From Candidatus Levyibacteriota bacterium (GTDB lineage Bacteria > Patescibacteriota > Microgenomatia > Levybacterales > UBA12049), in NCBI GenBank assembly GCA_016182185.1, contig JACOXU010000001.1:466915-530914 (forward strand): a stretch of DNA of 64,000 nt, given 5' to 3'. Each line of letters opens with the position of its first letter. The stretch's first letter is position 1. Of this stretch, positions 6,579-9,124 are shown piece after piece. A model generated the notes under the pieces. That model was not told the DNA's origin, did no database searches, and saw nothing but the letters and a program-made list of their open reading frames with translations. The translations under genes and the position numbers were made by a program.

Positions 6579-7580
6579 CTATAGCAAATCTTTTAACTTG
6601 ACCAGAATTTTATAACTATTAGCATGTTTTAATACACCAAGGTAAGATTGCACTGTCTGGTTTAAAGAAAAATCTGATATCTTTCCCGATCGATGAACCT
6701 TAATTTTTATTTTGACTTTATTTAAAATTCTTCTTTTAGTCTTTGTCCTCGGCAACAGGTAATACGGCAAAACAATGTATCCTAAAAAATCTATTCCCCA
6801 AGAGAGTTTGCGGAAAATAATCTTTTGTTGATGAAGTTCTAGATTCAAATTATTTAGCAAAAATTCTTTTATTATGTGTAAGTATTGAAATAGACTTTCC
6901 TTTGTATTTGAAATGATAATAAAATCATCGGCATAACGAATATAATATTTAACTCTTAATTTGTGTTTTACAAACTGATCCAGTTCATTTAAGTAAATAT
7001 TGGCAAAAATCTGGCTTGTTAAATTTCCTAAAGGTATTCCTCTTCCCTCCTCTTTGTTAAAGCTTGTTATAACATGTTCTAACAACTTAAGCACATTTCT
7101 ATCTTTTATTTTTTCTTTTAATAATCTTAAAAGTATCTTATGGTCTACGCTTGCGAAGAACTTTCTAATATCGAGTTTTAAAGCCCAGCATTCTCCGGTG
7201 TAATTTTTAGAAACCTCCCCTGCAAAGTTCTCAAGTCTCTTTACTCCTCTATGTGTTCCTTTACTCAATCTGCAGGAATATGAATCATAAATAAACGTTT
7301 TATCAAAAACACTATACAGGTATTTATATAAAAGGTGATGAACTATCCGATCTGTAACTTTTGCTTTGTGAATATGTCTTCTTTTAGGATCATTTATATA
7401 GAAATCTTCATAATCTCCGTGTTTATATGTTTTGCTTTTTAACTTTCGGTGAAGTTCAAACAGATTGTCTTCTAGATTTAAATGAAATTCTTGGACATCT
7501 TTTTTCTTTCTTTTTCCTTTGACAAACTCATTCCATGCTTGAAAAAGATTTTCTATTGAAATAAGATTATCGTATGTCAT
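6579..7580 (-). CDS. Diversity-generating retroelement (DGR) reverse transcriptase.
   Basis: 333 aa with RT motifs including YADDFII (motif 5) and IPLGNLTSQIFANIYLNELD. The [I/L]GxxxSQ motif 4 is diagnostic of DGR RTs, where group II intron and retron RTs have QG. A template repeat/variable repeat pair with an adenine-only mismatch pattern lies adjacent. Confidence 0.8.
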   Translation of the reverse strand: MTYDNLISIENLFQAWNEFVKGKRKKKDVQEFHLNLEDNLFELHRKLKSKTYKHGDYEDFYINDPKRRHIHKAKVTDRIVHHLLYKYLYSVFDKTFIYDSYSCRLSKGTHRGVKRLENFAGEVSKNYTGECWALKLDIRKFFASVDHKILLRLLKEKIKDRNVLKLLEHVITSFNKEEGRGIPLGNLTSQIFANIYLNELDQFVKHKLRVKYYIRYADDFIIISNTKESLFQYLHIIKEFLLNNLNLELHQQKIIFRKLSWGIDFLGYIVLPYYLLPRTKTKRRILNKVKIKIKVHRSGKISDFSLNQTVQSYLGVLKHANSYKILVKLKDLL

Positions 7581-7598
7581 TTAAGAAAGCAGGTAGTT

Positions 7599-8012
7599 CT
7601 GTTCACACACACACACACACACACCGATAGTATTTTTGACATACCGATATTCTCAAAACTATATGAGTTTTATAAAACTTTAACATCCGCAATTACTTCC
7701 TTTCCAAAAACAAAACGCTATACATTAGGACAGAAATTAGACAATATAACTTTAGAAATTTTGGAACTTTTGTTTTCCATTCCTGTCAATGAAAATAAAT
7801 ATCTTATCTTAAAAAAAATCAGCGTCAAATTGGATATTTTAAAAATTCTCGTCCGTCTCTCCAAAGATACTCAGTGTTTAAGAGAAGATAAATATTTAGT
7901 CCTCCAAGCAAGTCTTGCGGAAATTGGAAAAATGCTTGGAGGATGGATACGTTCCCATGAAAATTTATCAAGCAAGAGACTATCAGAGGAACCAACCTCA
8001 AGTTCGGATTGA
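7599..8012 (+). CDS. avd: Accessory variability determinant (Avd)-like four-helix-bundle protein, transcribed divergently from the RT. The start codon is uncertain because no in-frame ATG exists.
   Basis: The frame is open from 7560 to the stop at 8010-8012. Translation ...HTHTHTHTDSIFDIPIFSKLYEFYKTLTSAITSFPKTKRYTLGQKLDNITLEILELLFSIPVNENKYLILKKISVKLDILKILVRLSKDTQCLREDKYLVLQASLAEIGKMLGGWIRSHEN resembles Bordetella phage bAvd (from memory ...QVLIAEVGRILGSWIARVNRK) and the 23S-rRNA-IVS four-helix-bundle family. The ORF track starts it at a TTG at 7761, which would delete the first two helices. The nearest candidate start is CTG at 7599, downstream of the SD-like aagcaggt. Confidence 0.6.
   Translation: MFTHTHTHTDSIFDIPIFSKLYEFYKTLTSAITSFPKTKRYTLGQKLDNITLEILELLFSIPVNENKYLILKKISVKLDILKILVRLSKDTQCLREDKYLVLQASLAEIGKMLGGWIRSHENLSSKRLSEEPTSSSD
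7605..7624. repeat. (CA)10 dinucleotide microsatellite at the 5' end of the avd reading frame.
   Basis: Read directly: cacacacacacacacacacac, giving 10 AC units over 7605-7624 with a flanking c at 7604. Confidence 0.9.
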
Positions 8013-8091
8013 CATTGTCAGGATTCCAGAAATTGCCATTGAAACCATTAGTCTCATTCCAATTGCCTGCGATTGCACGGTTGGCACCTTT
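7984..8091 (-). repeat. DGR template repeat (TR).
   Basis: 108 nt aligning base-for-base with 8393-8500 at a constant offset of 409. There are 20 mismatches, and every one is a T on the + strand of TR, which is an A on the minus (coding) strand. The TR-encoded peptide has Asn AAY codons at most variable positions. Confidence 0.8.
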
Positions 8092-8157
8092 ATTAGCACT
8101 TCTCCGTAATCAATATTCCACCGAAGATTCTTTTCAGTCTCTTCTGAATTTTATCCT

Positions 8158-8174
8158 CCCCGCCAAAGGCGGGG
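8158..8174. other. GC-rich perfect hairpin (ccccgcc aaa ggcgggg) in the TR-VR spacer.
   Basis: Read directly: 7-bp stem with an AAA loop. It has the same core as the hairpin at 8350-8362 in the opposite orientation. Confidence 0.5.
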
Positions 8175-8349
8175 AAAAAGAGAAGCACCGTAGTAATCTT
8201 GCTTTCCCTGGAAGCACTCTTTCTCATCAAAAGATGAAAAACTCAGGCTTGTGGAAAGGTAAAAAGGCGGTCAGGATAAAAATATCGAAACTCACTGCCT
8301 TATCCTAATTTTAAAAAACGGAGAACCAAAATTCAAGAGGAAAACCAAT

Positions 8350-8362
8350 CCGCCTTTGGCGG
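8350..8362. other. GC-rich hairpin (ccgcc ttt ggcgg) about 10 nt downstream of the DGR target stop codon. It is a candidate DGR cruciform/hairpin element and/or terminator.
   Basis: Read directly. On the minus strand it reads gcccgccaaaggcgg followed by attggtttt. It lies about 30 nt 3' of the VR end, where DGR hairpins are typically found. Confidence 0.45.
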
Positions 8363-8371
8363 GCCAAAAAC

Positions 8372-9124
8372 CTATTTCCTAGGAATTTCTACCAGAGGAA
8401 CCAACCTCAAGCGCGGAGAGACATAGTCAGGATTCCAGAAACCGCCATCGAAACCACGAGTCCCAGGCCAACGGCCCGCGATGGCACGGCTGGCACCTGG
8501 TTGATCATTTTCATATGTATCAGTCCATGTATAGTTGTATCCGTAATCTTTTCCGTGAACTCTTACGCCGGTCTTCTTAAAATGTTTTAAGGCAAGTTCA
8601 GGCCATTCCGGAAAATGACCAACTCTTGTAACAAGCCCTGCTCCGGTATAATCCCTTTCGACTTTCATTTTTCTTTCTTCAAGAAGAACCAATTGATCCT
8701 CATATGGAATATCTTGGCTTCCTTTCAGATAAAACTCGGCCGGGTCTTTTGAAAATGCCAGAAGCGCAGGCTCGGCTGTCAAATCTTCAAGAGTAGGATT
8801 TAAATACCAGTATTTCATTCCTTCTCCTCGCAGACTTGCCGGGGTTTTGCCTGAAGTTTCATAGACGGCGAATCCATCTTTCTCCATATGTTCAACCAAC
8901 TTTTGGATCTCAGGGGATAAAGGAGATCTGACAACTTCTACTCTTGTAGCCTGTACCGCCGCATTTTCAGGTCTTACTTGTGATCTGGGAACTGCAATCT
9001 CACCATAAGCCTCTCTCCAAGTTTTTGAAGCGGCTATAAGCGTTCTTGCGAGACCACTTTTCGCCTTATCAGTTTTATCTGATTTAATATTTTTTCTTAA
9101 CTCTCTTTCAAGAAACTGAGACAT
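8372..9124 (-). CDS. DGR variable (target) protein with a C-terminal C-type-lectin/FGE-like variable region.
   Basis: 250-aa ORF whose last ~40 codons (YENDQPGASRAIAGRWPGTRGFDGGFWNPDYVSPRLRLV) are encoded by the VR. YNYTWTDTY resembles the GNVWEW motif of CLec-fold DGR targets. No signal peptide or TM helix was seen. Confidence 0.7.
   Translation of the reverse strand: MSQFLERELRKNIKSDKTDKAKSGLARTLIAASKTWREAYGEIAVPRSQVRPENAAVQATRVEVVRSPLSPEIQKLVEHMEKDGFAVYETSGKTPASLRGEGMKYWYLNPTLEDLTAEPALLAFSKDPAEFYLKGSQDIPYEDQLVLLEERKMKVERDYTGAGLVTRVGHFPEWPELALKHFKKTGVRVHGKDYGYNYTWTDTYENDQPGASRAIAGRWPGTRGFDGGFWNPDYVSPRLRLVPLVEIPRK
8393..8500 (-). repeat. DGR variable repeat (VR) at the 3' end of the target gene.
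   Basis: Homologous to TR 7984-8091, with 20 substitutions confined to template adenines. It ends 18 nt before the target stop codon. Confidence 0.8.

Follow-up and report, generated by a model that had tools for sequence, protein, structure and literature searches.

A (CA)n tract in the first codons of avd as a candidate phase-variable switch on a diversity-generating retroelement of Patescibacteria

The 64,000-nucleotide stretch of DNA analyzed here (the window; contig JACOXU010000001.1 of a Candidatus Levyibacteriota bacterium, positions 466,915 to 530,914) contains a complete diversity-generating retroelement (DGR), with a reverse transcriptase (RT), a template repeat (TR), a variable repeat (VR), a target gene, and avd, the gene for the accessory subunit Avd. 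The avd reading frame is parted from its ATG by a frameshift that lies within a perfect (CA)10 repeat. We consider it probable that this (CA)n tract acts as a slipped-strand contingency switch that gates Avd, and hence DGR mutagenesis, and that the copy in the window is in the OFF phase. Repeats recur at the same site across a clade of related loci, the CA loci divide about equally among the three frames, near-identical contigs from single strains differ in tract length, and the avd sequences bear the marks of purifying selection where the gene is out of frame. Loci in which avd has an in-frame ATG are referred to below as ON, and those without one as OFF.

A CA repeat separates avd from its start codon

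The features on which the argument turns are the following, in window coordinates.

7574..7630, plus strand: the avd ATG (7574-7576) and out-of-frame leader open reading frame (ORF), 18 codons encoding MSFKKAGSSVHTHTHTHR*, ending at TAG 7628-7630
7604..7624, no strand assigned: simple-sequence repeat (SSR), a perfect (CA)10 followed by C (Tandem Repeats Finder, 10.5 copies, 100% matches)
7626..8012, plus strand: avd body in frame 0, DSIFDIPIF... through the four-helix bundle, ending at TGA 8010-8012

A preliminary description of this region, made from the sequence alone, proposed that avd lacks an in-frame ATG and that slippage in the CA tract could reconnect it to an upstream one. The geometry is as it described: the avd frame is open from 7560, following TGA 7557-7559, and has no ATG, GTG or TTG ahead of TTG 7761, such that an ORF listing gives only 83 aa (7761..8012). 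TTG 7761 sits within helix 2 of the fold model of a homologue (P0005, below) and, on that model, the 83-aa product could not be a functional Avd. There is also a CTG at 7599, 5 nt past AGG 7591-7593, and the ATG at 7574 is indeed in another frame, reading into the tract and stopping at TAG 7628-7630. The (CA)10 assignment stands, with the coordinates corrected from 7605-7624 to 7604-7624 so as to include the terminal C. Gain of one CA unit (n=11) was predicted to yield a 146-aa Avd, and in silico it does so; among alleles with n=7-12, full-length products arise only at n=8 (144 aa) and n=11 (146 aa), and n=7, 9, 10 and 12 encode peptides of 16-37 aa. The loss of two units (n=8), which the preliminary description did not mention, likewise restores the avd frame. 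When in frame, the tract encodes (His-Thr)n.

The tract is not a chance occurrence, as no other dinucleotide run of at least 5 units is present anywhere in the 64 kb window, and (CA)8 was matched in none of 100 dinucleotide-preserving shuffles. Three independent Logan assemblies (SRR12113430, SRR12113383 and SRR12113384) are identical to the window base for base over 2.1-5.7 kb, (CA)10 included, and agreement of the four assemblies on n=10 indicates that the tract is not an assembly accident. An alternative genetic code in which the upstream TGA is recoded was dropped, the neighboring PNPase, RNase J and IF-2 ORFs being intact under code 11.

By alignment with relatives, ATG 7574 is the ancestral avd start, and the window copy is frameshifted within the tract. 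Avd proteins of Levy-, Curtiss- and Blackburnbacteria, and of other Patescibacteria, are the nearest relatives, with identities of 60-72%; their N-termini, where intact, have the form M-x(4-10)-(HT)2-6-x(3-5)-DIPIF. The out-of-frame leader of the window, MSFKKAGSSV-HTHTHTH, aligns with these N-termini (examples being P0003, MSYKKIPSVKSVHIHTHTDSIF, and P0005, MSYKNSPSKSVHTHTHTHTGNI / MSYKNSPSKSVHTHTHTHTGNIL), and this homology identifies ATG 7574 as the start from which the frame was broken inside the repeat. Both of the predicted in-frame alleles occur as proteins of relatives, HTHTHT-DS corresponding to n=8 and HTHTHTHT-DS to n=11, and together with the leader homology they support ATG 7574 as the true start. 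The alternatives raised in the preliminary description, a non-canonical start or an error in calling the repeat, fail, as no non-ATG start is conserved among the OFF relatives and the four assemblies agree on n=10.

The ATG at 7574-7576 also overlaps the start codon of the divergent RT gene (7580..7578, minus strand) in a head-to-head arrangement, which had gone unremarked. The leader ORF overlaps the start of the RT gene by 7 nt, the overlapping starts reading ATGTCAT, so that neither gene has room for a conventional ribosome-binding site outside the coding region of the other.

Both avd and the DGR around it are genuine

The avd body matches the Pfam family bAvd (PF22296) with E=2.1e-17 and 64 bits (cutoff 40) over profile positions 5-106 of 107, and has more than 250 homologues with identities of up to 72%. 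The lone avd body sequence found no useful match in the PDB, but a profile of its relatives did, with 4dwl (E=0.006) and 8ub7 Avd as the top sequences. Structure was predicted with AlphaFold2 for the in-frame homologue P0005 (72% identical) rather than for the frameshifted gene of the window; the model (pLDDT 85) has helices at residues 26-43, 47-73, 77-100 and 106-132, and its best Foldseek match is 4dwl_D, the Bordetella phage Avd, with a TM score of 0.90 and an rmsd of 1.4 A. Residues 1-21, which comprise the leader and the His-Thr repeat, have pLDDT below 50 and are predicted to be disordered ahead of helix 1, so that changes in the length of this repeat-encoded tail would be tolerated. 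The proposed Avd-like identity thus holds up in both the profile and the fold searches.

The remaining components of the cassette are all on the minus strand.

7580..6579, minus strand: RT, 333 aa, RVT_1 E=1.2e-24, divergent from avd
8089..7980, minus strand: TR, 110 nt
8498..8389, minus strand: VR, at the C-terminus of the target gene
9124..8372, minus strand: DGR target gene, 250 aa

TR and VR differ at 19 positions, and every mismatch (19/19) falls at one of the 30 adenines of TR; adenine-only differences adjoining an RVT_1 RT are the signature of a DGR. Family membership, the fold of a homologue and the TR/VR pattern establish avd as a bona fide Avd gene inside a bona fide DGR. It lies on the plus strand between TR and RT, head-to-head with the latter, and the RT is identical to P0121, a protein of a metagenome-assembled genome that NCBI names Candidatus Levybacteria.

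Repeats recur at the same site in related loci and occupy all three frames

The comparison of orthologous loci that had been suggested was carried out on 160 related loci from genome and metagenome contigs, found by avd-core peptide patterns, a search that is blind to start codons and gene calls. Removal of duplicates left 135 non-redundant loci, which were classified, and the frame statistics are computed per locus on these, uncorrected for shared ancestry. The head-to-head avd/RT layout is present in nearly all of about 150 related loci. An in-frame ATG is found at 72 of the 75 repeat-free loci (3 being OFF), versus only 16 of the 60 that carry a repeat, the other 44 having none (Fisher p=1.8e-18). 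The 41 (CA)n loci have tracts of 10-41 nt, (CA)5-20, and are distributed over the three frames 13:12:16, which does not differ from uniform (chi-square p=0.73). At OFF loci, the upstream ATG lies in another frame and encodes a homologous leader.

The repeat thus recurs at the same site and in all three frames, and it is not confined to CA units: sister clades have at this position an ATG followed by C9-C11 (MPPP...) and, in one instance, (AG)12. More distant clades with the same architecture are repeat-free, and their avd start is 12 nt before DIPIF.

Two of the repeat-free loci without an in-frame start have unusual sequences in this region. In L108, DIPIF is preceded by a KPSQ(A/T) peptide repeated in tandem. 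In L027, the ATG is out of frame and accompanied by a degenerate CA-like stretch (CTCACGACCACACC), possibly a decayed switch.

Tract length varies within single strains

Contigs encoding exactly identical RT proteins were grouped as strain sets; these are consensus contigs rather than reads. The sets, named for their RT proteins, have the following tracts.

P0124 strain: tracts of 17, 19 and 21 nt; 17 is ON (139 aa), 19 and 21 are OFF
P0163 strain: tracts of 11, 17 and 23 nt; all ON (139, 141 and 143 aa)
P0227 strain: tracts of 19, 23 and 25 nt; all OFF
P0145 strain: interrupted tract of one length in 10/10 places; OFF
P0143 strain: one length in 3/3 places; OFF

The P0124 strain, whose RT is 70% identical to that of the window, is represented by contigs at least 99.4% identical over 2-3 kb, in which a 2-nt indel is the sole difference upstream of the RT. 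Its 21-nt allele, MSYKNSPANSGHTHTHTHR*, is exactly the configuration of the window. Samples of this strain include ERZ4903070, ERZ4903125, ERZ4903137, ERZ27254842, ERZ27254754 and ERZ27254845. The P0163 strain (L186-L193, from eight samples) has (CA)5, (CA)8 and (CA)11 alleles, differing in three-unit steps and all in frame, which suggests that selection keeps avd ON in this population while the tract continues to mutate. Single-unit differences are also seen between pairs of loci with identical avd cores, L007 and L085 being one CA unit apart, and L012 and L096 having C9 and C10 respectively. One interrupted allele has the form (CA)7TA(CA)4. Different alleles were obtained with one assembler (k141 contigs) from sister samples, and the assembly k-mers far exceed the tracts in length, which argues that these are real differences between populations. 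One contig, L174, which appears in frame by virtue of a 1-nt difference, was discounted as probably error-prone, as 5 indels in 3 kb set it apart from its sibling contigs.

The proposal of a phase-variable switch is thereby supported in related strains, where near-identical contigs differ in CA number and encode either full-length or truncated Avd, and not in the strain of the window itself, for which all four assemblies have n=10. The loci nonetheless have the hallmarks of contingency loci, with a perfect repeat in the 5' coding region, a unit number that decides between full-length and truncated products and, in the related strains, length polymorphism.

avd is conserved in OFF lineages

None of the OFF loci has an avd core with an internal stop. 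The ratio of nonsynonymous to synonymous substitution rates (dN/dS) is 0.03-0.12 between OFF loci, 0.08-0.12 between the window avd and OFF relatives, and in a similar range, 0.13, for one in-frame pair. By this measure avd is under purifying selection in OFF lineages and is kept functional over evolutionary time, rather than being a pseudogene, although two thirds of the genes sampled are OFF.

A switch model and the alternatives to it

Both cDNA synthesis and retrohoming of the DGR depend on Avd in the Bordetella phage system. A review likewise describes Avd as essential for retrohoming (PMC10053308), and by analogy with phage BPP-1 we infer that it is essential in these Patescibacterial DGRs. 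In the model that we favor, the tract is a hypermutable SSR in the 5' coding region of avd, at which slipped-strand mispairing would alter n. With a frame-restoring n (8, 11 and so forth), translation from ATG 7574 would run through the leader and a disordered (His-Thr)n linker into the full four-helix Avd; with any other n it would stop after 16-37 codons and yield no functional Avd. With Avd acting as the obligatory partner of the DGR RT, OFF alleles would halt, and ON alleles would permit, mutagenic retrohoming of the target VR; the switch would be heritable, and reversible through replication slippage, and the window copy (n=10) would represent the OFF phase. We further infer that OFF alleles make no Avd protein and that switching is frequent and adaptive. 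A broader proposition, toward which we lean only slightly, is that, in this large clade of Patescibacterial DGRs, the hypermutator has itself come under the control of a stochastic mutational switch, slippage-prone repeats ((CA)n, poly-C and (AG)n) having been recruited on at least three occasions to the beginning of the avd coding sequence, such that lineages can, heritably but reversibly, either freeze a useful VR or resume diversifying, a form of bet-hedging on mutability.

Several observations weigh against the switch model. The window strain shows no length heterogeneity, the window and three Logan assemblies all having n=10, and the P0145 and P0143 strains look fixed OFF across samples (10/10 and 3/3 places, respectively). 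VR is identical in all eight P0124 contigs, ON and OFF, so that no link between phase and diversification is visible, and consensus contigs cannot yield switching rates. The tract also falls within the 5' leader or promoter region of the RT, beside a conserved [T/G]ATAG motif (described below), and may have a second or alternative role there. Lastly, the poly-C loci (which include L009, L012, L025, L030, L058, L095, L111 and L124) are skewed, 12 of 18 sharing a single out-of-frame state in which the tract has one base too many (chi-square p=0.011), which simple random switching does not predict; shared ancestry, homopolymer miscalls, an expansion bias, or +1 frameshifting at CCC_C are all possible causes.

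The most serious rival, given that some strains look fixed OFF and that poly-C is skewed to one state, is programmed recoding, in which Avd is made from out-of-frame alleles through RNA-polymerase slippage or ribosomal +1/-1 frameshifting and tract length tunes its level. We regard this as unlikely, although it would account for the strong purifying selection on avd even in strains and lineages sampled only OFF, for the same +1-type correction (e.g. at CCC_C) being required by 12 of 18 poly-C loci, and for the one out-of-frame state shared by seven diverged 'MS.H.K..THTH/LPKFEP' loci with short tracts of 13-15 nt. It fits poorly with the even spread of the CA loci over three frames, which offers no conserved single direction of shift, with in-frame proteins being known for every subgroup, including MSNH.K..HTHTLP.F and MPPP.DFTL, and with the P0163 strain, whose exclusively in-frame length alleles imply that the DNA frame matters. 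To our knowledge, CAC-ACA is not a slippery site, nor do we know of RNA-polymerase slippage being established on dinucleotide repeats. Programmed frameshifting in the 'MS.H.K' and poly-C subgroups was also considered, since the DNA loci sampled from them shared one out-of-frame state; it is weakened by in-frame proteins of both, and the poly-C skew remains.

Less probable still is that the repeat is selected on the RT strand or as DNA, whether as RT promoter, 5' leader, DGR RNA spacer or non-B DNA, with frameshifts in avd simply being tolerated. The position of the tract 24-44 nt upstream of the RT ATG is in keeping with this, as are promoter-like hexamers that put the RT start in or next to (TG)n and the conservation of [T/G]ATAG at the nucleotide level across frames in 24/41 loci; CA/TG, poly-C/G and AG/TC repeats can also form non-B DNA. 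However, the repeat is always within the avd reading frame after a conserved ATG-leader and never in a non-coding gap, distant clades with the same head-to-head layout are repeat-free, indicating that the architecture needs no repeat, and the promoter matches are weak consensus hits (7 versus 2.8 expected). We think it very improbable that avd is initiated non-canonically, at CTG 7599 or at an ATT or ATA near 7632-7647, with the tract being ordinary coding or leader sequence. CTG 7599 is 5 nt past an AGG, and an in-frame ATT at 7632 comes immediately ahead of the helix-1 region, but no in-frame near-cognate codon is conserved among OFF relatives, whose residues following the tract differ with the frame (DS.., PIVG, AYSS, LPKF). 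Moreover, the ATG frame, and not that of avd, encodes the homologous leader peptide, and no Shine-Dalgarno-like GGAGG lies upstream. The slimmest prospect of all is an artefact or decay, that is, a miscalled repeat length or an avd pseudogene in a defunct DGR. Simple repeats are indeed error-prone in sequencing, and VR is identical in the window and in all Logan assemblies of its strain (consensus contigs). Set against this, four independent assemblies agree on n=10, the 21-nt repeat is far shorter than assembly k-mers, and the same OFF configuration is found in other strains and samples; as to decay, the avd body is intact with a dN/dS of about 0.1, and RT, TR and VR are intact with clean adenine-only mismatches.

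Relation to known systems

Contingency loci based on SSRs include Haemophilus influenzae lic1 (CAAT)n, Neisseria opa (CTCTT)n, the poly-G/C tracts of Campylobacter jejuni, and the CT/AG repeats of Helicobacter pylori sabA and hopZ. The avd loci resemble these in having a perfect repeat just past the start codon, at which unit gain or loss toggles the gene ON or OFF, in showing all phases among genomes and length alleles within strains, and in a downstream ORF that is kept by selection. They differ in that avd encodes the accessory subunit of a targeted hypermutator rather than a surface or restriction-modification function, and in that the hosts are uncultivated Patescibacteria (Levybacteria and relatives). 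Closest in logic are the phasevarions, in which a repeat in one gene, that of a phase-variable Mod methyltransferase, stochastically toggles a higher-order system. Here too the repeat would gate a higher-order system and not a single structural product, but the output would be diversification of a target protein being turned on or off, as opposed to a methylation-dependent regulon.

With the DGR of Bordetella phage BPP-1 (mtd-avd-TR-brt; bAvd structures 4dwl and 8ub7), the window shares the four-helix Avd fold, a DGR-type RT and adenine-only TR/VR differences. Unlike BPP-1, its avd is inverted and head-to-head with the RT, TR is upstream, and a TR-to-RT transcript would be antisense to avd; the window avd also has a repeat-encoded N-terminal tail, and bAvd has no such tract. 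In the portions of Wu et al. (2018; PMC5758913) that are searchable as text, Architecture B3 is given as 90% of the DGRs of the Candidate Phyla Radiation (CPR). The window is similar to B3 as outlined there in having avd, TR and RT only, in non-canonical order and orientation, and the head-to-head layout of the related loci fits this CPR type of cassette and may be that of B3; the same searchable text mentions no repeat tract, missing avd starts or frameshifted avd. Contingency loci have also been reported in phages T2 and T4 in a preprint (PMC12633550), the accessible part of which presents slippage-prone tracts as bet-hedging switches outside the classic pathogens; judging from that part, the genes and hosts are different and there is no link to retroelements. 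We found no literature linking DGRs, avd or Patescibacteria to phase variation, simple repeats or slippage, in a search that did not extend to the main CPR-DGR paper (Paul et al. 2017). The novelty is in a contingency switch being placed on a targeted hypermutator; both kinds of element are already known, and no prior description of the combination was found.

A question posed by DGRs is how cells keep a beneficial variant and limit the cost of continual mutagenesis, and a heritable, reversible switch on an essential accessory subunit would, if true, answer it directly. It would also place classical contingency loci in the CPR, extending SSR loci from mostly host-adapted pathogens to ultra-small bacteria, and the idea is testable in existing metagenomes. 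In practice, a DGR survey that depends on called avd genes will overlook about two thirds of those in this clade or place their starts wrongly, and the tract could be adopted in engineered DGR mutagenesis as a stochastic gate that can be tuned.

Other features of the locus

Promoter-like sequences flank the tract on both strands.

7539..7567, plus strand: promoter-like TTGAAA-17-TAAGAT, inside the RT 5' coding region; consensus match only
7627..7656, minus strand: promoter-like TTGAGA-16/18-AATACT/TACTAT, on the RT strand; consensus match only

The predicted mRNA start of the plus-strand site is at or next to ATG 7574, suggesting that the avd mRNA may be leaderless or have a very short leader. 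The TTGAAA hexamer of this site is the reverse of conserved RT codons for LFQAW. On the RT strand, where the tract is (TG)10, the predicted transcription start is in or next to the repeat. The number of promoter-like sites in the region, 7 found versus 2.8 expected, is weak evidence. A [T/G]ATAG(T/C) motif with the palindromic core CTATAG (window 7625-7631) directly follows the tract in 24 of the 41 CA-clade loci, including L008, L014, L023 and L028; it is read as DS, PIV or AYS according to frame, and its conservation is therefore at the level of nucleotides and not of protein. This motif may be the -10 element of an RT promoter. A role for the tract as the spacer of an avd-strand promoter (TTCACA-18-GATAGT) was rejected as its main one, as transcripts beginning there would meet no start codon ahead of TTG 7761.

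The last 33 nt of avd (7980-8012) overlap the 3' end of TR in antisense and encode the tail ...RLSEEPTSSSD*, which is probably a by-product of the conserved end of TR (GGTTGGTTCCTCTG) being read backwards. RLSEKPTSSSD or a similar tail is found in many relatives. A transcript running from TR to RT would be antisense to the avd mRNA over about 430 nt (window 7574-8089), and there could be sense/antisense interference between Avd expression and the template RNA.

The 250-aa target protein has no Pfam match at E<=0.01, and its VR-encoded C-terminus (…GRWPGTRGFDGGFWNPDYVSPRLRLVPLVEIPRK) bears a possible likeness, judged by eye only, to the ends of C-type-lectin-fold DGR targets. A terminator-like hairpin (8371..8350) is located 3' of the target gene. 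The neighboring genes are housekeeping ones, encoding RNase J-like and Lon-like proteins, PNPase, S15 and IF-2.

The Rfam RT-16 RNA motif (RF03019) matches window 8088-8241 on the minus strand over its full length but below threshold (36.6 bits versus a gathering cutoff of 50; E=5e-4 to 3e-3), and the match terminates precisely at the start of TR. The DGR template RNA may thus have a structured 5' element in this region. A further promoter-like sequence, TTGAAT-17-TAAAAT (8336..8308, minus strand), is situated just upstream of the RT-16-like region.

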